DNA from: a virus
Lineage: Duplodnaviria > Caudoviricetes
IMG/VR virus record: IMGVR_UViG_3300005323_000013
Coordinates: 1-46,356 of that record
Reading direction: 5' to 3' (one strand)
DNA length: 46,356 nt
Below are positions 1 through 46,356 of this stretch, piece by piece. The position numbers and the translations under genes were made by a program. Under the pieces are notes generated by a model. The model saw nothing but the letters and a program-made list of their open reading frames with translations. It was not told the origin of the DNA and ran no database searches. Position 1 is the first letter of the stretch; every line of letters begins with the position of its first letter.

Positions 1-123
1 GGCATCGGGGGCGGTGGTATTGAGTTCTTTTAACGTATCCTTAACAGGGGAAGCGGTGAATAGCTTATCGTAGAACGCCGTCATTTTAGGCGTGAGCTTC
101 ACACGCGCCTTGACGCTCTGGTA
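1..123. repeat. Terminal direct repeat, copy 1 (circular-assembly overlap)
   Basis: 1-123 is identical to 46234-46356, and a minus-strand reading frame runs through the junction in frame. Confidence 0.97.
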
Positions 124-2499
124 GAGATCGTAGAGGAACTTTGCCATGCGCTTGAAAAAGCCTTCCGTTTCCGGCGTGGGCGCTTTGCCTGTGGCGATGT
201 AGTCCTCAAGGCCGTAGGCAATGGCTTCCTCGAAGGTTTTGTTCTTGTATTTGTAATCGTCCGTCCAGCCCTGAAATTCGCCCTTCCAGTCGCCGTCCTT
301 TACGCCGAATACGGTTTCCGCTTCCTTCATGAACGCATCGATCTGCGGCACGGTGCGGTTGTTCTGCGCGAAGGTCATGAAGGCATGGACAGACTCGTGC
401 GTGAACGTCGCGGGGTTGGCGTTGGGCGCAAGGTCGATGAGCGTCTTTACTACGCCGTCGATGCTCACCTGCTTTGCCGCGCCGAATACGCCCTGCTGGT
501 TCTCGCCCATGACGGGAGCAAGCACTTCCGGCGCAAGCGTCTTGCCCACAAGATCGTCGGTGGTCATGCCGAACATAACTGCAAAGGGCTTGACGATGAA
601 TACCGCGTCCTCAACGTCCTGCGCGTCCATGTTTGGCCGTTCGTTCTGGATGATCGCTCGGGTAGAGTCTAGCGTCGCAACGTCAGGAGTGTCGATTGCC
701 GCGCTGAACCACTGTACGCCGGTGCCGCGCCGATTATTCTTCTCGAGGTACGTTTTCAGCGCTTCGGCTGCCGGTGTCCGCGCCTCGAATTCAATGTCCC
801 ATCCTGCGTATTTCTTGGCAAGGTCAAGCACAAGCTCCTTGTCAATCGCAGGAGATTTGCTCTGTGAAAACGTGGTAATGGTCAAGGTTCCAGGGCTATC
901 GCTTTCGGTTTCGGCGGGGTCTGCGGTGTAAGTGAGATACGCAAGCTGCTTTCCCTTTGAGTCGCCCGCAACATGGGCAAGCGTCCCGCCGTAGTCCTTG
1001 CTTTCAAAGTGCGTACCTGCGGGAACAGGCTTTGCGGCTGATACTGCGAATTTGTCATACTGTTCGCCCGTGATCTGCGCGTCCTTTGGCATGGCGGTGG
1101 GGGGCGTCACGGTGGGCTTGGTGGCGGGTTTTATTGTTGGCTTTTTGCCTTTTTCGGTAGCGTTCGCTTCGGGCAACAGAAGGTCAACCATGACGGGAGC
1201 GCCGCCGAGTACCGCCGATCCCATGGCCGTGGTCACGATGGTATCAACGATGCGCTGTGTTATTTCCTTGGTCGTAATGGGCGCTATGTTCTTGCCGTCC
1301 AGCTTGTTTGTCACTTGCCGCGCAAGGTCAGTAGCCCATATCTGCGTGCCTTCCTGGAGTGTTTCCTGCAATGTTTCGCTTGCGACATTCTTGCCATACA
1401 TTCCCACGGTGCTGTTAAGAATTCTTGTCATGGTTCCTGCGCGTTGTGCTGCGTCGGGCAAGTTCTTCAATGTCGCGGAAAGAGCTTCGTCAAGCAGGCG
1501 TTTCTTTGCGGTATTCATGCCGGAGAGCGTGTTCCATATGGTGTTGAACTCCATGCCCTCGATGAGTCCTGCAACGCCGCCGTAAATGGTGGAGAAGGTA
1601 GCCGCAACAGTAGGATTCACGCGCTCGCCTGTTTTTGGGTCGCGGTAATTTATCATGTCAAGATATGCCTGTCCGCGCTCCATGTTCATTCCGGCAATGG
1701 ACGCGCCGATGGTTGAGAATACTTTATTGGACAGGAACGCGACTGATGGGAGGGTAACGTAGCCAATGCCTGCGACTGTAGCGCCTATGCCGATAGCAGG
1801 GGCTAGGGTGACTCCTGCCGCCGCCGCCGCGCCTGTGGCAAGGATCATTCCCGCCATGCCCCATAATCCGCCCGCCTTGGAGGTTTCCGCAACGGAAGGC
1901 ACAAGCTGTGCGAAGGCTTTGAGGAACTTCGTCGGGAGTGAACGCTTTATGACATCGGAGGGCGGCATTTGGCTGTTCAGTTCAAGTATCTGCGTATAGA
2001 GCGGATCGCTTTCGATGTCCTCGTAGCTTCCTTTCCATTTGTCAAGCAGTTGTGATGCGAGCTTGGAAGTTTCGTTTTGGATATAGGTCGCTTTCCAGGT
2101 GTTCGCTACCGCGTCGTACCATGTCTTTGGTGACATTGCCGTGCCGTAGTCGGCGGCAAGTATCTCATCGTGATCGCGGAACGCATCCTCGAACGATATG
2201 CCTTTCAATTGTGAAAGGAAGTATGAGGAATTGAGGCGATTTTCCATCGCTATGGGGTCGTCGCTTTCTTCAATGGATCTCTTGAACGTCGCGGCAATGT
2301 CGTTAGGCATCCATGAGCCAATGGGTGCGCCCTCGAATGGCGCTGTTTTCCCTGCGGTTTCGAGGTTAAACTGTGCGTTTGGATTGTCGGTGGAGTATTG
2401 TTTCAGTATGTCGATGGCGGGTGACTTGTAGGGCGAGGCGGGCTGTCCGAGTGATGCGAACAGTTTTTTGTAGTACTCGTCGCCGTAGTTGTCGCTCAT
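1..2499 (-). CDS. Giant internal virion/polyvalent protein, N-terminal 833 aa; continues across the junction into 46233..41485 (total ~2,415 aa)
   Basis: ATG at 2499 with GGAG upstream. Manual translation (MSDNYGDEYYKKLF...ELNTTAPDA) is open to base 1 and joins DNLTLKD at 46233. Contains a hydrophobic Gly/Ala-rich stretch and HESVH (385-399) followed by EEAIAYGLEDY, a zincin-type motif. Absent from the ORF track because it has no stop before the contig end. Confidence 0.9.
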   Translation of the reverse strand, partial: MSDNYGDEYYKKLFASLGQPASPYKSPAIDILKQYSTDNPNAQFNLETAGKTAPFEGAPIGSWMPNDIAATFKRSIEESDDPIAMENRLNSSYFLSQLKGISFEDAFRDHDEILAADYGTAMSPKTWYDAVANTWKATYIQNETSKLASQLLDKWKGSYEDIESDPLYTQILELNSQMPPSDVIKRSLPTKFLKAFAQLVPSVAETSKAGGLWGMAGMILATGAAAAAGVTLAPAIGIGATVAGIGYVTLPSVAFLSNKVFSTIGASIAGMNMERGQAYLDMINYRDPKTGERVNPTVAATFSTIYGGVAGLIEGMEFNTIWNTLSGMNTAKKRLLDEALSATLKNLPDAAQRAGTMTRILNSTVGMYGKNVASETLQETLQEGTQIWATDLARQVTNKLDGKNIAPITTKEITQRIVDTIVTTAMGSAVLGGAPVMVDLLLPEANATEKGKKPTIKPATKPTVTPPTAMPKDAQITGEQYDKFAVSAAKPVPAGTHFESKDYGGTLAHVAGDSKGKQLAYLTYTADPAETESDSPGTLTITTFSQSKSPAIDKELVLDLAKKYAGWDIEFEARTPAAEALKTYLEKNNRRGTGVQWFSAAIDTPDVATLDSTRAIIQNERPNMDAQDVEDAVFIVKPFAVMFGMTTDDLVGKTLAPEVLAPVMGENQQGVFGAAKQVSIDGVVKTLIDLAPNANPATFTHESVHAFMTFAQNNRTVPQIDAFMKEAETVFGVKDGDWKGEFQGWTDDYKYKNKTFEEAIAYGLEDYIATGKAPTPETEGFFKRMAKFLYDLYQSVKARVKLTPKMTAFYDKLFTASPVKDTLKELNTTAPDA

Positions 2500-16292: not shown

Positions 16293-16311
16293 TATATATA
16301 TTACTTAGTCA
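16293..16311 (-). promoter_or_regulatory. Candidate phage late promoter, TGACTAAGTAATATATATA
   Basis: One of three copies of the motif; intergenic, upstream of the portal/head operon. Confidence 0.65.
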
Positions 16312-16312
16312 C

Positions 16313-17842
16313 CTACCTTAGCCCACTCCATAAAATATCGTATGTTTCTTCGCGGGGTGCGTTTATCTTGAATACGTCGATAGGATCGCCTTGCGGGAAG
16401 GTCGCGCCTAGTGTGTCGTCCATGATGCGGGAAAGTGCATCGAGCATATCGTCATGCTCGGAGTATGGGAACGCAAGGAACTCGTCATTGACGAATACCT
16501 GCGACAGATCCACCACTTTGCGGTCGTACTGCTCGTAGGGCATCGCTTCAGGGATGTAGACTCGCCCCTCACTCAATGCCGGGACAAGGCGCTTGATGCG
16601 GTCGTTCTTGGGCATGGTTCCCGCAAGCGGGGTGATGGAAAAGCGGTAGTTCTGCCTATCCATGCGCTCCATCATGTACTGGATATCGGCCTGCATACCG
16701 TACTTCTCATAGCCCACGGCGACAGGCTTGTACTCCTGGTGGAGCTTGAATAGCACATTGGCGCGTTCCTGTAGATTCAGGCGGTCGCGCACGATGCGGG
16801 TGACATAGTAGTTTTTATCGCTTCCCATGCCGACGACGATAAACACGCTGTAGTCGCTTCCCTCTTTCTTCTCGCTGGCAGGATCAACGAGGATGTAGAA
16901 GTTCAACCCTGTCATGCGGTCGGCCTTCCAGTAGCGCAACCATTCGCGCAAGAGCGATTGATTGCCCTCGGCTACCGGATTCAGGAATAGCTGGCAGGAG
17001 GAGATGTACGGCCCCATGGCTCTGACCTTCTGCGCAAGCTGCTCGCGTGTCCATATCCACGGCTCGCCCAGCAGGGTGCCGTCCTTCGTCGCGGGATAGA
17101 TGCGCGGCTTGAATGTACCGTCTTTTATTGCCCGCAAGTGTATGTCGTTGTAGGTGTAGATCGTCCCCACCATTGACTGCTTGCCAATTCCCGTAATGCC
17201 CAGGTTGTAGCTCATCTTGAGCGCGTCTTCACACTTCTGCAATCCATCGGGCGTCCGCACGGTTTCAATGGTTTCCACATCATCATAGCGCCGGTACTTG
17301 AAGTGCATACCTGTGGGCTGGCCGTCCGTTAGCCCTGAACACATGGCAGTAGGCTCTTTTGGGTTATATCTGCGCTTGCATACAATCCCCTCGTCCTGCG
17401 TCCATTTCGATGATTCCTTGCGCGGGTCTTGGTAGAGTATGTCGGAAAATAGCTCTTTCAGGTGTTCATTGCTTTCAAGTTCGTGCGTTACCGGCCCCAT
17501 GAGCTTTTTAGCATTCGGCTTCGTAAACGAGAATAGGCAGGTTGTCCCTTCGGGGTCGTTGAGAATATCCCCGATCATGCCGTTCTGCGTAATGACGGTA
17601 CTCTTGAACCCTTCGCGGAACCATAGATCGGCGTATCCCCATGGCTCGCGCTGTACCTCACGCGTCCTGTCGTATACCCAATCGTTGTCCACAATCTCGC
17701 GGGGTACGATGGACAGCACATACACAAGCCGGAAGAACGGATCGCTCTTGCACAGCTTCCGCGCCATGTCGCGCTTCGTACCGTCCTTCTCGGCCTGCGC
17801 CAAAATGCGGCGGTAGCCTGCGTGGGCTTCGAGGCGGGTCAA
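16313..17842 (-). CDS. terL: Terminase large subunit
   Basis: Walker A-like FREGFKST, Walker B-like RYDDVE, nuclease motifs VDPA...SDYS and HDDMLDALS. Confidence 0.93.
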   Translation of the reverse strand: MTRLEAHAGYRRILAQAEKDGTKRDMARKLCKSDPFFRLVYVLSIVPREIVDNDWVYDRTREVQREPWGYADLWFREGFKSTVITQNGMIGDILNDPEGTTCLFSFTKPNAKKLMGPVTHELESNEHLKELFSDILYQDPRKESSKWTQDEGIVCKRRYNPKEPTAMCSGLTDGQPTGMHFKYRRYDDVETIETVRTPDGLQKCEDALKMSYNLGITGIGKQSMVGTIYTYNDIHLRAIKDGTFKPRIYPATKDGTLLGEPWIWTREQLAQKVRAMGPYISSCQLFLNPVAEGNQSLLREWLRYWKADRMTGLNFYILVDPASEKKEGSDYSVFIVVGMGSDKNYYVTRIVRDRLNLQERANVLFKLHQEYKPVAVGYEKYGMQADIQYMMERMDRQNYRFSITPLAGTMPKNDRIKRLVPALSEGRVYIPEAMPYEQYDRKVVDLSQVFVNDEFLAFPYSEHDDMLDALSRIMDDTLGATFPQGDPIDVFKINAPREETYDILWSGLR

Positions 17843-18003: not shown

Positions 18004-18211
18004 GCTGTGCCTCGTTTAGCTTTGTGCCATACTTAAATGCCTCTTCAAGATCCCCTTCGGTTAAATCAACCAACACTGGCGGGAGCATCGTATACTTCAC
18101 TTTGTATGCCTTGTGTTTATTGGGGTTAACCTTGACGGGTATGCAGGCATCGCTCCAAACAATGCGATAAATTTCTCCTGTTGCGTTTGTTACTAAGGAT
18201 TCCCTGCTCAT
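17990..18211 (-). CDS. Small hypothetical protein
   Basis: ATG (MSRESLVT) overlaps the terS stop; AT-richer than neighbours. Confidence 0.55.
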   Translation of the reverse strand: MSRESLVTNATGEIYRIVWSDACIPVKVNPNKHKAYKVKYTMLPPVLVDLTEGDLEEAFKYGTKLNEAQHDRT

Positions 18212-18633
18212 GCAATTATCTCCTGTAGCCACGCTTCCAGCTCGTCGCTGATCTCTTTGTGCTTCTGCGCTTCTATTTCCTTCTGCGCTATGGCAATCTT
18301 GATCAGGCTGTCCATAACGCCGCGTAGTTCCCTGCTCATTGCCGCAATAGCGATGATGTTGCCTGACTCAACCGCCGTGCCTAGTGCGCTGCCGAGCGTA
18401 GTCTTTAGGTCGTACAGCTCGTCAACGATGTCGGCGGCCTTCGATTGCTTGGCCTGGATGACGGCGGGGGCCAAGGTCGCTACTTCGGAAACCATGTGCG
18501 GTTTATGCCTGTTCACCGCCTGATACTTTGTTCCAAACTGTTCCGCGATGTTCCGTAACGAATCGCCAGCCCGTATCGCCTGCTCAATTGCGTCGCGCTT
18601 GGGGTGTTTGCAGATTGAACAGGTTTGCGGCAT
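18208..18633 (-). CDS. Probable terminase small subunit (CxxC plus HTH)
   Basis: CSICKHP...SLRNIAEQFGTKYQAVNRHK HTH followed by helical region; upstream of terL. Confidence 0.75.
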   Translation of the reverse strand: MPQTCSICKHPKRDAIEQAIRAGDSLRNIAEQFGTKYQAVNRHKPHMVSEVATLAPAVIQAKQSKAADIVDELYDLKTTLGSALGTAVESGNIIAIAAMSRELRGVMDSLIKIAIAQKEIEAQKHKEISDELEAWLQEIIA

Positions 18634-18651
18634 ATATATATAACTTAGTCA
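18634..18651 (-). promoter_or_regulatory. Candidate phage late promoter, TGACTAAGTTATATATAT, abutting the terS ATG
   Basis: Second copy of the motif; no Shine-Dalgarno between it and ATG 18633. Confidence 0.65.
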
Positions 18652-18655
18652 GTAG

Positions 18656-19036
18656 CTATTCGCACTCGTCGGGGTCGCAGTCGCCCTTGATGAATGTTTC
18701 AATCTCGTGCCGTTCCGCGCCGATAGCCTGGCTGTATAGCACCTCCTCCTTGAGCTTGGCATAGCGGAACTTCCTACTTCGTAGCCGGTTGCTCGTCGCG
18801 TAGTAGATCACGCCGCCTATGCGCTGGATTGGTTCCCTGCGGTCTAGCCGCGCCATAAGGACAAGTACCGAGTCTGTGATAAGGTCGTCGCGCTCTTGGC
18901 ATGGCACTACGGCCCCTGTCTTGTGCAATAGATGGCTTAGCGTACAAGCAACCTCCGAGCTTATCGCCAGCCATAGAGCGTCCCTGCACTCCGATCCCCT
19001 GCAATACGCATCATAAAGCGATTGTGCTGTGACCAC
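18656..19036 (-). CDS. Sigma-70 region 2-like transcription factor (126 aa), candidate late-gene activator
   Basis: GTG 19036 with AGGGGGA RBS. ERDDLITDSVLVL...GVIYYATSNRLRS resembles the ECF sigma region 2.2-2.4 pattern. No region-4 HTH. Last gene before the packaging module. Confidence 0.55.
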   Translation of the reverse strand: MVTAQSLYDAYCRGSECRDALWLAISSEVACTLSHLLHKTGAVVPCQERDDLITDSVLVLMARLDRREPIQRIGGVIYYATSNRLRSRKFRYAKLKEEVLYSQAIGAERHEIETFIKGDCDPDECE

Positions 19037-19069
19037 GCATCCCCCTGCGCCAGGATGATGTGCGGGCAT

Positions 19070-19116
19070 AAAAAAGCCGCCCGTACCCGTCGATTCTCTC
19101 GACCGTGGTAGGACGG
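19070..19116 (-). terminator. Terminator/attenuator-like hairpin plus U6 tract in the leader of the sigma-like gene
   Basis: CCGTCCTACC...GGTACGGGCGG followed by CTTTTTT on the minus strand. Confidence 0.6.
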
Positions 19117-19144
19117 TTTGCCGTGCGTGTGGCACGTTGGGATT

Positions 19145-19173
19145 AGTATAATGTCACGCGGCTAGAAATACAA
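19145..19173 (-). promoter_or_regulatory. Sigma70-type promoter TTGTAT-17-TATACT
   Basis: Near-consensus boxes with 17-bp spacing, intergenic. Confidence 0.7.
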
Positions 19174-19206
19174 GAGCGTAACGCGTGTTCCCTGTCGGAA
19201 CGCTAT

Positions 19207-28449: not shown

Positions 28450-28748
28450 GCCGCGCCTCCCATGTAAGAAAATTCCGCTTCCGTGCGGATCGTCACGCTG
28501 TACCCCGCCTTCCTGAGCCTGACCCTGACCTCCGGCCTGTCCATGAGTGGGTCGGCGATCTGCTGGATGCGTTCTGGCGGAAGCATTTTTCTTGTGCTTT
28601 TTTCGATTGCGACGCTTGCCACACAGACAAGCGCGGTGTCGGGCGGAAGGTCGCACGTCAATGCGTTGCGAAGAATTTTCAGCCCGCCCTCGGCGAACAG
28701 CTGAACGAGTGTCGCGGCCTCAAACGCCGCTTCGGTTTTTACGGTCAT
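28446..28748 (-). CDS. Hypothetical protein
   Basis: ATG 28748 with GGAGG; overlaps the stop of the HTH gene. Confidence 0.7.
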   Translation of the reverse strand: MTVKTEAAFEAATLVQLFAEGGLKILRNALTCDLPPDTALVCVASVAIEKSTRKMLPPERIQQIADPLMDRPEVRVRLRKAGYSVTIRTEAEFSYMGGAA

Positions 28749-28900
28749 TTCACAGCCTCCTTGACTGCGCTTTCGGGAATTAACAGCTTTTTCCCAATGC
28801 GCTTGGCTTCGAGCTTTCCTGCCTTTACCCAATCGGACACCGTTTCGGGTGTAACGCGAAGGCGGAAGGCAACTTCTTTCCTTGTCAAAAACTTATTCAT
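28745..28900 (-). CDS. Excisionase-like HTH DNA-binding protein (51 aa), Cro-position gene
   Basis: Manual translation MNKFLTRKEVAFRLRVTPETVSDWVKAGKLEAKRIGKKLLIPESAVKEAVK; GGAGG RBS. Below the ORF-track size cutoff. Confidence 0.88.
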   Translation of the reverse strand: MNKFLTRKEVAFRLRVTPETVSDWVKAGKLEAKRIGKKLLIPESAVKEAVK

Positions 28901-28926
28901 ACGATTCTTTCCTCCCCTCATAACCC

Positions 28927-28955
28927 ATAATAAAGCACCTTTGGATGCACGTCAA
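28927..28955 (-). promoter_or_regulatory. Leftward early promoter TTGACG-17-TATTAT
   Basis: Near-consensus sigma70 boxes upstream of the HTH gene. Confidence 0.75.
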
Positions 28956-28960
28956 TAGAC

Positions 28961-28973
28961 AAAAGAATCTTTT
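28961..28973. promoter_or_regulatory. Candidate operator AAAAGA-A-TCTTTT
   Basis: Perfect inverted repeat between the two divergent -35 boxes; the AGAATC core recurs at 29005-29010 and, inverted, at 28903-28908. Confidence 0.5.
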
Positions 28974-28980
28974 ATAGCAT

Positions 28981-29009
28981 TTGACACTCTTTTTTTTATC
29001 CGTTAGAAT
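28981..29009 (+). promoter_or_regulatory. Rightward promoter TTGACA-17-TAGAAT
   Basis: Consensus -35 and near-consensus -10; predicted +1 falls at about ATG 29017. Confidence 0.78.
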
Positions 29010-29016
29010 CTATGAT

Positions 29017-29178
29017 ATGGAAGCAATGAAACCGAGAAGCGTTCGTTTTGATAAAGAAACGGACAGGCTGATTGAAGAAGCGGCGCGGGCAGAGGGTCTT
29101 GAACCGGCGGCATACATTCGGCGGTGTACGATCTTGTACACGCGGGAGCATCATCCCGAACTGTTCCCGCGCTCATAG
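29017..29178 (+). CDS. Ribbon-helix-helix (CopG/Arc-like) regulator, candidate repressor
   Basis: PRSVRFDKETDRLIEEAARAEGLEPAAYIRR fits the RHH beta-alpha-alpha pattern; only convincing plus-strand gene; no SD, so probably leaderless. Confidence 0.8.
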   Translation: MEAMKPRSVRFDKETDRLIEEAARAEGLEPAAYIRRCTILYTREHHPELFPRS

Positions 29179-34488: not shown

Positions 34489-34516
34489 ATCATACTACTA
34501 TATCCCGCGTTGTCAA
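34489..34516 (-). promoter_or_regulatory. Sigma70-type promoter TTGACA-16-TATGAT with AT-rich upstream tract
   Basis: Consensus -35 and near-consensus -10, intergenic. Confidence 0.7.
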
Positions 34517-34948: not shown

Positions 34949-35188
34949 CTACTTCACCCATGCGGGTTTTGCGCCCTTTGGTCCGCCCTGCGCGGCCAGC
35001 CGGTCATGGTGTTCCTTCACCTTGTCCTTGCCGATATGCAGGTCGGAGGATAGCTCGCGCTGTGTGCAATGGTCATAGAGGCTCCACAAGTACCACTCCT
35101 GATCGGCGGTAAGGGTCACGCGGTTGCCGGAATTGCCCTTGGGTGGCGCGGTCATGCGCTTGGAAAACAGCGTGGCAAGTTCTTCCAT
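34949..35188 (-). CDS. Small HTH protein
   Basis: TQRELSSDLHIGKDKV; ATG 35188 with GGAGG RBS. Confidence 0.6.
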   Translation of the reverse strand: MEELATLFSKRMTAPPKGNSGNRVTLTADQEWYLWSLYDHCTQRELSSDLHIGKDKVKEHHDRLAAQGGPKGAKPAWVK

Positions 35189-35202
35189 GGTGCCTCCCAT
35201 GT

Positions 35203-35982
35203 CTATATGGCTTCGGCTTTGGCCGCCGCAAACGTGGGGATAAGCCGGTGATACTGCCATGTGAATTCCCCCTTGTCAGATATCCACCACTCAATAAAGC
35301 CGTAGCTTATGGTCTTGCTCATGCGCGTGCCGCCGTACCGCGTCCAGCCTTGGAGCGCCGGGGTCACAATTGCGGTAAAGTCGTCCTCAATGACAGCGTG
35401 ATAGGAGTGGAGGTGCGAACGGATAAACACGGTTGCGCGGGGTTGTAACTCGCGCTCTGCCCACATGAGATTCCACACGGCTTCACGCGGGAGGGCGGGG
35501 GGAACCGCACCGGGGGTTGAGGAAGATCCAATATGGTGCTTGAAGTCGATGACGCATCCGGCGTACTCAAGCCATGCGTGGGCTTGAAGCCTTGTGCCAA
35601 ACGCCTCGGCTATTGGTGCCTCGAATTGCTCGGCGGTGCCGGTGTGCGAGTTGGTTCCCTCGATCACCGTCGCCTCATCAAAGTTAAATTGCTTCATGCA
35701 CTCGATTGCCATTTTCGCCTGTTCGTGCCTATCGGACGACCATAGCTCGGTGGCCCCGCTTCTTATGCCGTCGCCCTCGCATCCGTCGCCGTTCAGCACA
35801 AGCCGGTCAAGGTGGCCTATCGCGTGCGCCCGCTTTTTGAACCATCGCCATGTCGTCATTTGCCAGCGGCGTATCTTTTCTTGTACGGGGTCATCGCTTT
35901 CCCGCTCCCAGTGTTTCGGCGGGCAAAGGCCGAATCGGTGGCCGCAATGCAAATCGGAGATTATAACGCCGTGTTTAGGCAT
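35203..35982 (-). CDS. Calcineurin-like metallophosphoesterase
   Basis: ISDLHCG, NGD..EG, GT.SH, KHH, SHLH motifs. Confidence 0.87.
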   Translation of the reverse strand: MPKHGVIISDLHCGHRFGLCPPKHWERESDDPVQEKIRRWQMTTWRWFKKRAHAIGHLDRLVLNGDGCEGDGIRSGATELWSSDRHEQAKMAIECMKQFNFDEATVIEGTNSHTGTAEQFEAPIAEAFGTRLQAHAWLEYAGCVIDFKHHIGSSSTPGAVPPALPREAVWNLMWAERELQPRATVFIRSHLHSYHAVIEDDFTAIVTPALQGWTRYGGTRMSKTISYGFIEWWISDKGEFTWQYHRLIPTFAAAKAEAI

Positions 35983-36502: not shown

Positions 36503-36726
36503 TTCTCCTTAACGGCTTTGACGAGGCCGATGATGCCCTCCACCGTTGTCATGCCGATCAGCACAAGCACCATGCCCGCGCACAGGCACGCGCCGAAAAA
36601 CGCCCACTTGCTGTCAAATATCACGGCGAGTTGTAACTGCTCGAAGCACACTACGGCATAGAGGATTCCGAGCGTGCGGCGCATCGAGCCGGAGCCGTCC
36701 TGCTCTTGAAATATGGTTGCGCTCAT
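36499..36726 (-). CDS. Holin-like protein (2 TM helices)
   Basis: 75 aa, G..SMRR motif, two hydrophobic segments, basic C-terminus; in the lysis position. Confidence 0.65.
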   Translation of the reverse strand: MSATIFQEQDGSGSMRRTLGILYAVVCFEQLQLAVIFDSKWAFFGACLCAGMVLVLIGMTTVEGIIGLVKAVKEK

Positions 36727-37121
36727 GCTTCCCTCTTTATGATGCGCTTGCTCACGAGTTGCCCCTGCGATACCGTCAGCGCGTTATCCAGCGGGTCATA
36801 GACGCATTGCCCGCGTCCATCGCCTACTACGAAATGCGCATAGGTCTTGACGGTGGTCTTGCGTTCGTAGCGCAGTATTTCCCACTCGTGGCCGAGCGTC
36901 GCGTATGTCGCCGGCGCGTGGCGTACTGACCAATTACCGCCCGATATGAGCGACAGGAGCCGCGCCGGGTCTTTGATGTAGCAGTCCTCGTCCATAACAC
37001 CCGCCGTCACCGCTTGCTTATAGAGGCCGATGGCGTCGTTATCGCGGTTCGCCAGGTGGAGGAGGGCAAGGAAGTAACAGCCGCTTTCCCCGAGTTTGCG
37101 AGCGATGGTCTGCGAGTTCAC
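36723..37121 (-). CDS. DUF261-like papain-fold protein, candidate endolysin
   Basis: GCYFL, CYIKDP, HFVV, YDPL (Cys-His-Asp). GTG 37121 overlaps the upstream stop. Flanked by membrane-protein genes. Confidence 0.65.
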   Translation of the reverse strand: MNSQTIARKLGESGCYFLALLHLANRDNDAIGLYKQAVTAGVMDEDCYIKDPARLLSLISGGNWSVRHAPATYATLGHEWEILRYERKTTVKTYAHFVVGDGRGQCVYDPLDNALTVSQGQLVSKRIIKREA

Positions 37122-37414
37122 GCGGTGCCTCGCAACAAATAGCCCACGGCCCCCGCGACGAGTGCGCCGATGATGTAGCCGATCAGCTGTTCCCACCGTT
37201 TCGCAGGCTTCTGCTTCAAGTCCTGCACGGCGGATTGGATCATCTCAACGCTTCGCTCGATCTTGCCGACGGCAATCCATAGCGCGGCAATTTTCTCCTC
37301 GCGCACGGCCCCCGATTGCTCGATGGTGCGGAGCCGTCCGTCGTGGTTTTCCAGCGTTCCCTCGATGTTTTCGAATCGCTGTTCATGCGCGGCTGTTGGA
37401 TGCGATGCTACCAT
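37118..37414 (-). CDS. Coiled-coil plus C-terminal TM protein, XhlA-like holin candidate
   Basis: Heptads followed by KPAKRWEQLIGYIIGALVAGAVGYLL; ATG 37414 with GGAGG. Confidence 0.7.
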   Translation of the reverse strand: MVASHPTAAHEQRFENIEGTLENHDGRLRTIEQSGAVREEKIAALWIAVGKIERSVEMIQSAVQDLKQKPAKRWEQLIGYIIGALVAGAVGYLLRGTA

Positions 37415-38639: not shown

Positions 38640-38640
38640 G

Positions 38641-38669
38641 CCTTGCTCCTTCTGTCTCCCGACAGTAGC
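38641..38669 (-). repeat. 29-bp direct repeat, copy 1 (GCTACTGTCGGGAGACAGAAGGAGCAAGG)
   Basis: Identical to 41426-41454; CTGTC-GGGA-GACAG hairpin followed by SD. Confidence 0.95.
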
Positions 38670-38679
38670 TAGAACCTTG

Positions 38680-41425: not shown

Positions 41426-41454
41426 CCTTGCTCCTTCTGTCTCCCGACAGTAGC
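41426..41454 (-). repeat. 29-bp direct repeat, copy 2
   Basis: Identical to 38641-38669; directly precedes the TTG start at 41425. Confidence 0.95.
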
Positions 41455-41463
41455 ATTGCCCTC

Positions 41464-41480
41464 TACATATTACTTAGTCA
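41464..41480 (-). promoter_or_regulatory. Candidate phage late promoter, TGACTAAGTAATATGTA
   Basis: Third copy of the motif; upstream of the fibre/lysis operon. Confidence 0.65.
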
Positions 41481-41484
41481 CTAG

Positions 41485-44400
41485 CTATTTCTTCGGCCTT
41501 CCAAGCAACGCGCCATAGTCGCCTTCAAGTACCCGCGTCGCGTCGCGGTAAAGTTGCGTCGGCGCTCCTACAAGTACCAAGGAGTCGATAAATGACTGTG
41601 TAGCCTTTTCTATGTCGCCTTCTGACACGGCGGCGAGTCCGTCCGCGAAGTCCTGAACGCCGGGGAACATGGTTTCGGGATACCGTTTTGCCTTCTCTCC
41701 GGTGATGAGGCGCTGTGTAAGGTTCGTCGCAATCTCTCCGACAAGCGGAATAGAATCCGTTGCCTGTGTGATACTCCAGAAGAACAGCCTCCGCGCTTTT
41801 TCTTCCGGCGTTTCGTCGTCCTTCGGGTGCGTCTTGACGGCTTTCAGGAGGATCCCCGCAATCGCGTAAGAGGTCACGATGCCGAGCGCCCATGCAACGT
41901 TCTTCTCGCGCACGGCGGCGGGCAGGTCGTAGGCGATATTCTGGAATATGACGTTCAGGGATGATTGGAACTGCAATATCACTTGCATCCATCCTGATTT
42001 GTTCCTGAACATCGGCGCAAGGTCGTCGCTATACGCGCTTGGCTGTGTCATCATGGTTTTGTCGTCGGCCATGGCAACAGCTTTCTCCACGTCGCCGTCG
42101 AAGTCGTCCAGGTAGCGGTCATACATTGCCCGCCAGCCCACGGCAACAAGGTAGCGGTCTACAAGCTCAAGCCCCTTCATGCCGATTTCTTCAACCTTCT
42201 GCACGTTGCGACCTAGCTTCGTATCTGCCTTGCCGGACTTTATCGATTCCATCATGACATTGACGCCCTGCTTGGCTCTGGCGCGAAGGCGTACCGACAT
42301 TCCCTCCGTTTCCCGCAAGTAGCCGATGGGGTTCGTCATAAGCCGTGAGGCTTCCGCGACAAGCCGGACCGGGCCGGTATACTGCATGGCCGGCCATAGC
42401 GACGTGGTAATCTGCGTCATCATCGATGCCGTGCGGAAGGCGAGCGACGCGAACGCGACATTCCCGCGCAACAGTCGCACGGTAGCGTCATTCTTTGCGC
42501 GGTCGTTCATTTCCTGCGGATTCTTTACGTTGTCGATATAATCATACAGGTATGAAAGTGCCGATTTGCCGCCGATGCTTTCGATATCTTCCTGCATTTT
42601 GGGGGTTCGGTAGATTGCGTCAATCTCTTTCGCGTACTTGGCAAACGCGATAAGGTGTTCTTGGCGGTCGATGGATTCGTTCCAAGTTGTCAGGAGGTCA
42701 AGTTTGACCGGGGTCTGACTCCATGGCTTCATGGTTACTCGCGCCTTTGTAAAGCCCTTTCGCGGTGGTGCCTTGCCGTTTATGGCTCTGCTTCCATGCT
42801 CCATCGCCATTTGCTCGTCGATCTTCTCGGTGGCTCCGCGCCGGATAATCATGAAATAATGCTTGACGGTCTTGAATGGCTGGTTGTAGATGTCGGCCAT
42901 GATACGCGCAATTCTCGGCGCGGCTTCGGTAGAGTCCTGCTCGAAGGCTTCGAGTATTTTCATGTCCTCCGGAGTGAGTGTCGCATCGATGAAGTCCATG
43001 ATCTTGTTGAAGCGTTCAGCGCCTTCAAGGTCGAACCATACCAGATCGCCTTTGTGTTCGGCGCGTTCGTTCGCTGAGAAGAACTCGCCATAGAGAACAG
43101 CATTTCGTGAATCTTCGTTTCGGAACGCAAGTTCAACCGCCATGAGGTCGGTTTTGCGGAGTTTAAAGTCGCCGCGTTGTGGCCCTGCGCCTTCAATGGT
43201 GTATTCGGTAGTAAAGAACGATTCCGGCTTCTGGTCTGCGTCAAGGATTGCCTGATTGATAAAAGCGTGCCTGCGTTCGCGCTGAGTCAGATCCTCGCGT
43301 AGGATCGTTTCCTTGTCATGCCATAGCAGTTGAACATTAGCGCCGTCAACGCCGCCGTCAAGGATGTCGCGGATAAACCTTCGTGCGCTGCGCGTTTCAT
43401 AATTCGCGCTTTTCAGCCTGTCGATGAGCTTCCGCGTGTTTTCCTTGGTAAGGTCAAGCCCTTCGGGTTTTTTATAGTTCTTGTTTTCCTCGAAGGTTTC
43501 CGTGACGAGAGAACTTTGGCCTTCCACCTTTTCGCTGAATCGTTCGCGCTTCCCACGCCATTCCGCACGGCCAATATCGGCAAGCACTTTGATTTCAGTG
43601 GTCAATGCCTCAAGTTCGGTGATTGACATTTTCTTTATGTCGGGGTTGTCCTGGAGGTCAAGAATCTGCTGTGCATAGCTCACGGCAACAGATTTCCCCG
43701 GCGCTTTCGTGGCGCGGGCAACAAGCTGGTCATGGTAGCGTTTCAGCTTTTCCAGCGCCCTGCGCTCCGCGTCGCGCTTCTGGTATGCGTCCTGGCCCTT
43801 CGTGCGTTCTTCGAGCGCGGCAAGGTACGTCTGCAACTGCGCGGAGTTCTTGTAGTCCTTGGCAACGGCGAGTTTGGTGGACAGTTCCGCAATTTTGGCA
43901 CGGTTCTCCTGCCTCGTGCGAACGTCGTCGCCGGATACTTCCTCGCCCCTGGCCTTGGCTTGCTGGATGTCAAGGTCGGCGCGGTCGGCAAGTTTTTGCG
44001 CCTGTTGCATCTGGCGCTCTATCTCCATCCAGTCCTGCGCGGCGACAAGTTTTCCCCTGATGGACTCGCGGCGCTTCTCGATGGATACGCGCTGTGATGC
44101 AAGGCTCTCCGGTATCTCCTGCCCTGCGTTCACAAGTTTGTCCGTGCGGGCAATGATCTTTTTCAGTTCATTCTGCACGTTGCGAAGCTCAACGCGCTGT
44201 CGTCCCATGGTGATGCCGTTCGCGTCAACCTCGGATTCGAGCGCCTTGATATCGCCGTTTAGCGCAGTTTCACGCTTGGCCGATGCCTTGCTTTCTGATT
44301 TCAGCTTCTTTATGAGCGCGGCAACGTTATCGCCTGCGACTACCTTGCCGGAAATGATTTCCTTTGCAAGTTTCTCGTCGGTGATGTCTGCCGCAAGCGC

Positions 44401-46233
44401 CGTGCGTTCCGAAATGGTCATGCGTTCCTGTAGCTTGATATCCTCGATCGGGCTGTTTTTAACGGTTTCGGCCTTCTTCCCGATAGCGGACAGCTTCGCA
44501 TCGTTCATGGTGTCGCCCGCGATTCTCGCGTATGCTTCGGGGTTGGCCTTGATAATGCCCATGAGGGTGGCAAAGAAGCGCGTGGATACGTTTCGCCCTG
44601 CTCCGATGGCTAAAGCTCCGGCAATAATCGGCTCGGCTATCTCAGCACGCATTTCGTCGGCGGCGTCCTTTATCGCAAGCGTCGCGGTAATCTCTTCGGG
44701 GTCTGCGCCGACTTCTGGCTTTATGTTCTGCGCCTGAATCACGTTTTCCCATATCGCGGATAGCATCTTGCGAATTCCCGCGTAGTTATCATCGGCAAGC
44801 CGCTTTACCCATTCGGCAATCGTCGGTTCGGTGTCGGGCGCGGGGGAATTCGCCTCGTCCCATGCTTTGCGATACCACGCATTTTTTGCTTCTGGCGACA
44901 GGTCGGGGATGCTCCACTCTATGCGCGTGTCCTCGAATATGGGCGCTTCCATGTCGGCAATAAACTGCTCGACGCTCTGCCCTGTGTCGGCGTAGTTTTT
45001 CGCAGTGGCAAGCACTTCATCCTTGTAGTCGCCCTGGAAAAGAATGTTGCCGTTCGGGAAGTCCTCGCCATTGTAGAATCTTCGGATATAGCCCATAGCT
45101 TTCGCTGGACTCATGCTATCGGTCTGAATGTCTGCATACCTTTTACCATCATACATGGTAATGTTTATAAACCCATTGCTTACCATAAAATCTTTTATTA
45201 CATCCCACTGTTTATTTGTTGGCATTGCCCCCATTTCTGCATAGGATTCTACTGCATCCATTCTTATCCCGCCGAGCTTTTCAAACATATCCATTTCAAG
45301 GCCATCGGCTTTGTTTATGTTTCTATGATCAAAGGCTCGTGAATTTTTAAGGTAATCATCTTTTACTGCAATATATTTACCGTTCTTTTTTGTATATCCA
45401 ACCGCATCATTACGCCCCGAAAAATCAAGCATTTTACCATCGGGAAGTACATATCCTGCTTCTTTGACGTTATTCGTGGTTCCGAAAGTATCAATGGCTT
45501 TGTCGAATGCGGCTTGCACTTCGGGGGATATGCCGCCCTGGTTCAGCACCGTATCGCTTGCCGTGCCTTGCTCTATAAAGAGGCGTCTTGCGGCATCTTT
45601 TGGTTTATATTGTTTTGCGTTGGCTAGTAATGGCTCGCCATCTGAACCACTGCCTATTTCATCGCCTTCAACAATATAAATAGGCTCATTCATTAGTGTT
45701 GAGTATGTACCTATCTCTTGTGGATGGCGCGGAATAATTGCTGTCGATCCATCGGGGAGAAGTTTACCATGAAATACTGAAACCCCTTCTTCTGTAATAT
45801 TGTCACGATAGTTTTTAGATTTCCCCCCTGGCGGAAGTTTCCCATAGCGGACATAAACATCTTTTGCGTTTTTCCATTTTTCGTTGAGTGCCGCTTCTTT
45901 TTCTTGTGCTAAGGTTTTTGTCGCTTGATGCTCTACATTAAGGACGGGTGCTCCGTACCCATCTTCTGAAACTTTAACATCCCATCCATCTTTTTCCATT
46001 TCGGCTACAATATTAGAAACGTCTTTACTTACATAAGGCCACCTCTTTTCTGGCATCTCGTCATTAGCACCTCGGAGAGAGAAGTACCCTTTCCCTGGTT
46101 GTCCATAATCAGCGCCATAAACCGATATTGTGGCTTTGTATGAAAGTTGATGCAGGGCGTCTCGATATATGGCTTCCTTCGTATTATCATCTCCCTGATG
46201 AAGTATAGTAGCATCTTTCAAAGTAAGATTGTC
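41485..46233 (-). CDS. Giant internal virion/polyvalent protein, C-terminal 1,582 aa (continuation of 2499..1)
   Basis: In frame with the 5' part across the junction; AT-rich modules, long coiled coil and a helical C-terminal region with hydrophobic segments, as in gp16-like ejection proteins. Confidence 0.88.
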   Translation of the reverse strand, partial: DNLTLKDATILHQGDDNTKEAIYRDALHQLSYKATISVYGADYGQPGKGYFSLRGANDEMPEKRWPYVSKDVSNIVAEMEKDGWDVKVSEDGYGAPVLNVEHQATKTLAQEKEAALNEKWKNAKDVYVRYGKLPPGGKSKNYRDNITEEGVSVFHGKLLPDGSTAIIPRHPQEIGTYSTLMNEPIYIVEGDEIGSGSDGEPLLANAKQYKPKDAARRLFIEQGTASDTVLNQGGISPEVQAAFDKAIDTFGTTNNVKEAGYVLPDGKMLDFSGRNDAVGYTKKNGKYIAVKDDYLKNSRAFDHRNINKADGLEMDMFEKLGGIRMDAVESYAEMGAMPTNKQWDVIKDFMVSNGFINITMYDGKRYADIQTDSMSPAKAMGYIRRFYNGEDFPNGNILFQGDYKDEVLATAKNYADTGQSVEQFIADMEAPIFEDTRIEWSIPDLSPEAKNAWYRKAWDEANSPAPDTEPTIAEWVKRLADDNYAGIRKMLSAIWENVIQAQNIKPEVGADPEEITATLAIKDAADEMRAEIAEPIIAGALAIGAGRNVSTRFFATLMGIIKANPEAYARIAGDTMNDAKLSAIGKKAETVKNSPIEDIKLQERMTISERTALAADITDEKLAKEIISGKVVAGDNVAALIKKLKSESKASAKRETALNGDIKALESEVDANGITMGRQRVELRNVQNELKKIIARTDKLVNAGQEIPESLASQRVSIEKRRESIRGKLVAAQDWMEIERQMQQAQKLADRADLDIQQAKARGEEVSGDDVRTRQENRAKIAELSTKLAVAKDYKNSAQLQTYLAALEERTKGQDAYQKRDAERRALEKLKRYHDQLVARATKAPGKSVAVSYAQQILDLQDNPDIKKMSITELEALTTEIKVLADIGRAEWRGKRERFSEKVEGQSSLVTETFEENKNYKKPEGLDLTKENTRKLIDRLKSANYETRSARRFIRDILDGGVDGANVQLLWHDKETILREDLTQRERRHAFINQAILDADQKPESFFTTEYTIEGAGPQRGDFKLRKTDLMAVELAFRNEDSRNAVLYGEFFSANERAEHKGDLVWFDLEGAERFNKIMDFIDATLTPEDMKILEAFEQDSTEAAPRIARIMADIYNQPFKTVKHYFMIIRRGATEKIDEQMAMEHGSRAINGKAPPRKGFTKARVTMKPWSQTPVKLDLLTTWNESIDRQEHLIAFAKYAKEIDAIYRTPKMQEDIESIGGKSALSYLYDYIDNVKNPQEMNDRAKNDATVRLLRGNVAFASLAFRTASMMTQITTSLWPAMQYTGPVRLVAEASRLMTNPIGYLRETEGMSVRLRARAKQGVNVMMESIKSGKADTKLGRNVQKVEEIGMKGLELVDRYLVAVGWRAMYDRYLDDFDGDVEKAVAMADDKTMMTQPSAYSDDLAPMFRNKSGWMQVILQFQSSLNVIFQNIAYDLPAAVREKNVAWALGIVTSYAIAGILLKAVKTHPKDDETPEEKARRLFFWSITQATDSIPLVGEIATNLTQRLITGEKAKRYPETMFPGVQDFADGLAAVSEGDIEKATQSFIDSLVLVGAPTQLYRDATRVLEGDYGALLGRPKK

Positions 46234-46356
46234 GGCATCGGGGGCGGTGGTATTGAGTTCTTTTAACGTATCCTTAACAGGGGAAGCGGTGAATAGCTTA
46301 TCGTAGAACGCCGTCATTTTAGGCGTGAGCTTCACACGCGCCTTGACGCTCTGGTA
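46234..46356. repeat. Terminal direct repeat, copy 2 (circular-assembly overlap)
   Basis: Identical to 1-123. Confidence 0.97.

Follow-up and report, generated by a model that had tools for sequence, protein, structure and literature searches.

A phage protein with a predicted sigma region 2 fold and no region 4, and a motif that accompanies its gene ahead of late genes

The DNA analysed here (the window) is the whole of IMG/VR virus record IMGVR_UViG_3300005323_000013, a stretch of 46,356 nt; this phage record is circular, with a 123-nt terminal repeat, and 100% complete. Nearly all of its genes lie on the minus strand. The late block includes T7-type portal, capsid, tail-tube and terminase genes, and the replication block is lambdoid-like. 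The gene under study, its neighbours and the three copies of the motif described below are located as follows.

18656..19036, minus strand: 126-aa protein with a predicted sigma region 2 fold and without sigma-4, candidate late-gene specificity factor (ORF and predicted model)
19037..19206, minus strand: 170-nt non-coding leader of this ORF (sequence)
18638..18651, minus strand: motif copy 1, TGACTAAGTTATAT, before terS (motif search)
18208..18633, minus strand: terS-like gene, the first behind motif copy 1 (weak PHROG terS match, E 0.066)
16313..17842, minus strand: gene for the terminase large subunit, terL (Pfam, PHROG)
16298..16311, minus strand: motif copy 2, past the terL stop and ahead of the portal/capsid block (motif search)
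41467..41480, minus strand: motif copy 3, past the giant virion-protein gene and ahead of the tail-fibre/lysis block (motif search)

The 126-aa ORF is an open minus-strand frame with a GTG start, and it contains the residues quoted in an earlier note on this DNA; the collection's own gene call (P0002) is 11 aa longer. Both the gene and its start are supported, because the homologue in the phage fragment L003 starts in register with it and is 53% identical over 98 aa. The protein as a whole has a pI of 5.6, made up of residues 1-95 with a pI of 9.1 and an acidic tail, the last 31 aa, with a pI of 4.3. Since no sigma-4 or HTH match was obtained at E≤10, the description of a short acidic tail without a sigma-4 HTH, given in that note, holds. 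The same applies to the position of the gene as the last one before packaging, the next gene being the terS-like one, whose homologues stand before terL in the related fragments L002, L003 and L014. As had also been noted, only 4 nt separate the end of the ORF stop codon (18656) from the beginning of the motif core (18651). A Shine-Dalgarno-like run was not found in the 22-nt gap before the terS-like gene. On its upstream side, the leader of the 126-aa ORF contains a weak host-type promoter-like pair (TTGTAT-17-TATACT), under the bar of the promoter scanner, and 30-80 nt after it a hairpin with a U6 run (about 19076-19116; fold z -2.2). The leader (19037-19206, minus strand) resembles a promoter-terminator attenuator ahead of the sigma-2 gene; a counterpart was not seen by eye in L003.

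Consistent with the claim that this phage has no RNA polymerase of its own, no RNA polymerase family was matched among the 113 ORFs of the window (Pfam). The giant virion-type protein, which spans the assembly origin (41485-46356 joined to 1-2499, minus strand), contains an HExxH string and has no family match; it was rejected as a virion RNA polymerase, its DFDGD string not being kept in either of two homologues. On sequence similarity, the host is probably a spirochaete, because the phage SSB is closest to Spirochaetia SSBs and a DUF261 gene is present. The SSB is 58-80% identical to those of 14 genomes belonging to the family of a Spirochaetia MAG, and at most 46% identical to plasmid SSBs among the best 12 plasmid rows listed, with Borrelia leading. 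Neither a spacer nor a prophage match was found as proof of the host link. The DUF261 protein (36723-37196, minus strand; E 2e-16) is encoded in the lysis block, at the place expected for the endolysin. A leader of ~29 nt, consisting of a small hairpin and AAGGAG, is duplicated at 41426-41455 and 38640-38670 (minus strand). One copy lies directly after motif copy 3 and the other two genes on, and the tail-fibre gene and the 125-aa gene that they bracket are possibly an exchange cassette. No variants were found in one DNA sequencing run that may be the source of the record.

The 126-aa protein gave no sigma match in Pfam, PHROG or NCBIfam (NCBIfam at E≤1), and none of its homologues (0 of 7) matched PF04542 or another sigma-2 family at E≤10. 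AlphaFold was uninformative from the single sequence (pLDDT 38.5). With an alignment of eight rows, pLDDT was 74.8, with 79-91 in the core, and the model consisted of four helices and a long C-terminal helix, the residues past the core forming one low-confidence helix (pLDDT 52-58). When this model was compared with 48,161 chains by VIA-align, the top 10 rows were all sigma factors (Z 7.7-10.6), led by ShbA (Z 10.6; rmsd 3.6, 99 aligned), CnrH (9.3) and SigC (9.1); T4 gp55 (7d7d_F) reached Z 8.8 (rmsd 3.0, 87 aligned) and the first clear non-sigma chain 7.3, values to be read knowing that, for helical bundles, a Z below ~13 may reflect only a common arrangement. The top four PDB rows of Foldseek were sigmaE region 2, at probabilities of 0.84-0.97 and E values of 0.17-0.36, and gp55 came seventh; no match was obtained at E≤0.001, the best E being 0.17 and the best viral one 0.024. 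Eight of the 10 structure rows of an independent model, from the Atlas, were sigma clusters (TM 0.49-0.60), all of them under the Atlas naming bar. Because the top rows are uniformly sigma factors and the independent Atlas model points the same way, we predict that the 126-aa protein has the four-helix fold of sigma-2, its fourth helix being long. The likeness to the ECF residue pattern that had been read from the sequence agrees in this way with the fold searches but is invisible to HMMs, and the proposed comparison of a predicted model with known folds placed sigma region 2 first in both Foldseek and VIA-align, with weak E values in Foldseek.

ShbA contacts the beta-prime coiled coil via D60, Q63 and E64 (PMC12019637), and gp55 does so via three acidic helix-3 residues (PMC7892883). 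At the positions matching the ShbA acidic residues, D or E is present in 8/8 and 7/8 of the family rows. The docking with the beta-prime clamp helices suggested in the earlier note gave a predicted complex with a spirochaete beta-prime N-terminal domain that scored 0.69 versus 0.00 for the best of 3 controls, although sigma and the beta-prime clamp are a textbook pair and the score may reflect likeness to solved structures and not binding. The mark used for such scores was reached by 116/157 solved pairs and by 2/215 mismatched pairs. Complex runs shared at least 87% of their contacts, with a pLDDT of 78 for the partner, which is a stand-in, the host being unproven. In the prediction, the closest contacts on the coiled coil are made by D51, T54 and D55 of helix 3 and by the invariant W22. 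We predict that the 126-aa protein docks on the beta-prime clamp coiled coil, likely in place of the host sigma.

The motif TGACTAAGTWATAT is present three times in the window, all copies being exact when up to 2 mismatches were allowed; 0.20 copies were expected and 0/100 shuffles reached 3. All of the copies are on the coding strand, each directly past a stop codon in a late-region gap. The first T of copy 1 lies 18 nt upstream of the terS ATG, and the spacing is identical in L003, which has CTACTGACTAATAA at both syntenic places covered and shares the TGACTAA core. Across the five sites of the window and L003, a purine at offset 14 and an A at offset 18 are invariable, and no shared upstream (-35-type) box was visible by eye in the 30 nt upstream of them. 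The profile built from the 3 sites of the window ranks the two syntenic L003 sites first (15.3 and 14.1; next 4.7), and the reverse profile, from the 2 sites of L003, places only 2 of the 3 window sites in its top 8; the first L003 site is G-rich where the bubble would open. With all five sites, the profile detected no fourth site in the window (third 35.3, next 12.9). Weaker copies of the motif were rejected, since the 9-mer TGACTAAGT with one mismatch occurs at chance (5 vs 4.2).

Gene and motif were then compared in the relatives, which are fragments. In L002 (terS 70%, terL 86%), which is 27% complete, the 8.3 kb ahead of terS contained no homologue of the gene, and TGACTAA was absent from both strands. 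The block of motif copy 2 is an insertion common to the window and L003 and a clean gap in L002. In L014 (terL 50%) gene and motif were both not found. The sigma-2 gene module is thus not universal among close relatives, given that L002, with a terL as close as 86%, is without the gene in that region. None of L002, L003 and L014 has the motif without the gene, a combination that had been named as one that would speak against the proposal. The joint presence or absence of the two rests on three close genomes, the window included, and amounts to one gain or loss. The terL of L002 (8906-11461) carries an insertion of ~340 aa resembling an intein that contains a homing endonuclease.

A phmmer search of 1.84 billion representatives returned 7 proteins, query included, and profile searches added two. 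The resulting nine homologue clusters include two stand-alone forms, the 126-aa ORF and the 112-aa protein of L003, which is 53% identical and is also encoded directly before terS. The other seven are longer and combine the same N-terminal domain with a Cys/His (zinc) knuckle followed by HTH_17 (six clusters; weak in P0007, E 0.031) or by HNH (P0008), on short contigs of 903-4813 nt. The small HNH nuclease fused in P0008 presumably resembles the HNH nucleases found before terS in cos phages. A word-based search returned only the 126-aa protein itself, 50,697 annotated phage records contained no relative of it (best E 3), and alignment A3 had no match in viral_contigs or genome_contigs. The family profile gave no match in 5 related virus fragments, nor in 401 genomes sampled from G001's class and 69 of its family, a search that included no positive control. 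Over 218 loci, the profile recovered only the window's own copies, L003 and the four contigs L086-L089.

These four contigs are near-identical, and in them the fused homologue is split over two frames. It belongs to a satellite-like element of roughly 7.3 kb (L087:83-7482), bounded by a tRNA-Arg duplication and carrying integrase, HTH_17 and AAA_25 genes; the surrounding chromosome encodes an EF-Ts whose closest counterpart (68%) is that of a Spirochaetia MAG. The frame-split sigma2-Zn-HTH_17 gene of L087 is flanked by ~75-nt repeats with a core of the type TG[CT]CTTA..TATATAGGG. The five-site phage profile scores four of these repeats highest in that 1.7 kb, the best score (13.5) being reached by 1/300 shuffles, and the repeats are not independent of each other. 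With a profile of the L087 repeats, the window sites come 2nd, 5th and 10th, and those of L003 are missed. On sequence comparison, the link between the phage motif and the L087 repeat is modest and serves as a lead. The element may be a parallel of P4 with Delta and P2 with Ogr.

Promoters of host type, and proteins that might act as partners, were located as follows.

34489..34516, minus strand: sigma70-type site near consensus (11/12), heading a non-structural block (promoter scan)
28927..28955, minus strand: sigma70-type site (10/12), at the head of the early/replication block, whose end is the sigma-2 gene (promoter scan)
28745..28921, minus strand: stand-alone HTH_17 protein, candidate partner, 10 kb from the sigma-2 gene (Pfam E 2e-10)
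34949-35260, minus strand: 103-aa ORF in which one stretch looks HTH-like by eye, possible partner (no Pfam, PHROG or PDB match)

In the late-region gaps the scanner listed no sigma70 site. Genome-wide, the counts of the promoter and terminator scanner were at chance, and only the top-scoring sites were used. Divergent near-consensus sigma70 promoters lie at 28745-29178, between the HTH_17 gene (minus strand) and a small NikA-like/RHH gene (plus strand), apparently the sole plus-strand gene; this region is likely an early control switch.

The reading that we favour, with a confidence little beyond even, is that the stand-alone sigma-2 protein binds the clamp of the host polymerase and opens one-box promoters (core TGACTAA) of the late genes. 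The sigma-2 gene would be expressed at the close of the early run driven by host sigma70, with the hairpin-U6 of the leader damping its expression. The protein would then take the sigma-2 seat on the host core polymerase and redirect it to the motif, which would act as a -10-type element without a -35 box for the packaging, capsid and tail/lysis blocks. RNA would start about 14-18 nt past the first T and, because the terS ATG is 18 nt away from that T, the terS message would have little or no leader. Three points of this reading are inferred: recognition of the motif by the protein, a promoter role of the motif, and activity of the protein without a partner. By analogy, sigma-2 without sigma-4 can work: in vitro, ShbA without R4 matched the wild type in transcription (PMC12019637), and gp55 alone gave basal transcription (PMC7892883, PMC2988020).

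The main rival in our ranking, ahead of a decoy or a motif with another reader, is a split sigma, because most relatives have an added DNA-binding domain and a free HTH_17 gene is present in the genome. The motif would in that case be read with a required second subunit, either the HTH_17 protein (28745-28921), the product of ORF 34949-35260 or a host factor, after the manner of SigO-RsoA, Sig7-Sig8 of Tn916 or gp55-gp33. We regard this reading as rather unlikely. The additional C-terminal domain in seven of the nine clusters suggests that the bare domain may need a partner, and HTH_16, presumably the Orf8 family, is the named Atlas cluster closest in features. According to the Tn916 preprint, both parts are needed in all of its two-subunit examples (bioRxiv 10.64898/2026.10.01.756105). 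However, the neighbouring genes gave no sigma-4 match, a search that could miss divergent partners; the strongest Sigma70_r4 match among the 113 ORFs is below the cut-off (E 0.028), and the five sites lack a visible shared upstream box. HTH_17 genes are also commonplace in phages, which weighs against a second subunit of this kind.

We consider it improbable that the protein is a sigma decoy, one that would occupy the clamp coiled coil and shut off host or early transcription while another factor reads the motif. Such a role would fit with computational support existing only for the core-binding surface and with L002 appearing to manage without the gene. Yet the motif is present where the gene is and missing where the gene is missing, the window and L003 differ in their motif variant just as they do in the protein, and motif-like repeats also flank the fused copy carried by an unrelated element. 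Slightly less credit goes to the motif serving a dimeric regulator as its operator, or acting as a signal in translation or structure, with gene and motif having merely travelled together. TGACTAAGTAA is an imperfect palindrome with stops in three frames, each copy directly follows a stop codon, and one evolutionary event is unable to separate linkage from function. Against this, the right half of the palindrome is lost in L003 (TGACTAATAA), where only the oriented core is kept; the orientation of all copies along the coding strand and the fixed 18 nt between the core and the terS ATG point the same way, as does copy 2, which follows the gene across genomes despite a distance of 2.3 kb. Finally, it is hardly credible that the fold is another small helical bundle, for instance a histone-like one: histone folds were the only PDB sequence matches of the family profile (E 0.17-1.1) and the single-sequence model was uninformative, but three structure searches on two independent models ranked sigma-2 first, the predicted interface maps to the sigma-binding helices, and a histone identity was rejected with sigma factors topping the VIA-align rows and histones absent from all 50.

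The claim that this would be an undescribed system was overstated, as gp55 with its -10-only promoter, split sigmas and sigma-2-only phage proteins are in print. Compared with the gp55 papers (PMC7892883, PMC2988020), our candidate and T4 gp55 would have in common a sigma-2 domain, an acidic helix 3 on the clamp, a long helix 4, no sigma-4 and a promoter without a -35 box. In sequence there is no detectable homology between the two (no PHROG or Pfam match; no PDB sequence match at E≤10). A clamp-binding motif of the gp55 type was not found in the ORF tail by its pattern, and gp33 and gp45 had no match in genome scans. The T4 late system is that of a T4-like myovirus, whereas the present one would serve three sites in a 46-kb phage with a T7-type portal. 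No Pfam or PHROG match connected the 126-aa ORF with the Ltr family of late regulators, whose types are RinA, LtrC and ArpU. Ltr genes are likewise the last of the early cluster, directly before terS and with a site upstream of it (PMC3753634). The Ltr proteins described there are small, basic, C-terminal DNA-repeat binders, unlike the acidic protein found here (pI 5.6), with its predicted sigma-2 fold and a single oriented site in a 22-nt gap.

The split sigmas SigO-RsoA and Sig7-Sig8 of Tn916 likewise have a separate small region-2 protein in a mobile-element setting, as presented in the preprint (bioRxiv 10.64898/2026.10.01.756105). In these pairs the region-4 gene is adjacent, whereas here no neighbour gave a sigma-4 match, no -35 box is visible, and the relatives fuse Zn+HTH_17 or HNH instead of sigma-4. 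ShbA of Streptomyces, an ECF sigma and the best structural match, has D-x-x-Q-E where the present protein has D-x-x-T-D (PMC12019637). It is a two-domain bacterial sigma, whereas the 126-aa protein naturally consists of the sigma-2 unit plus a short tail and does not combine sigma-2 and sigma-4 in one chain, the test for ECF (group 4) factors. Sigma-2-only proteins have been reported as common in phages (bioRxiv 10.64898/2026.10.08.757525); that survey used Pfam cut-offs, which the 126-aa family does not reach, and its available text assigns no promoter or function. In the literature covered, which included few subscription papers, we found neither the 126-aa family described nor a phage factor that consists of sigma-2 alone and acts without a partner. 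The new elements are a family that Pfam does not detect, a motif accompanying its gene, a fixed spacing to terS and the fusions with Zn+HTH_17 or HNH.

Tentatively, these observations could be brought together as mix-and-match sigma-2 modules in spirochaete mobile elements. The bare 112-126-aa form would be a partner-free sigma that fires one-box promoters and gives a leaderless terS message, and the zinc-knuckle and winged-helix fusion would serve satellites with related motif arrays, where it may trans-activate or soak up the late transcription of a helper phage. If true, this would mean a sigma shorter than gp55 in nature, and one with a second domain other than sigma-4; the fused forms point to such a combination of sigma-2 with a different DNA-binding domain. 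HMM surveys miss proteins of this kind. The minimal sigma and its candidate promoter constitute a natural testable pair, with L003 as a second natural variant for specificity swaps, and they bear on the sufficiency of sigma-2 alone in vivo as well as on a single-domain origin of sigma factors, as proposed in the phage survey (bioRxiv 10.64898/2026.10.08.757525). Should the protein act on its own, it would make a very small orthogonal switch for transcription.
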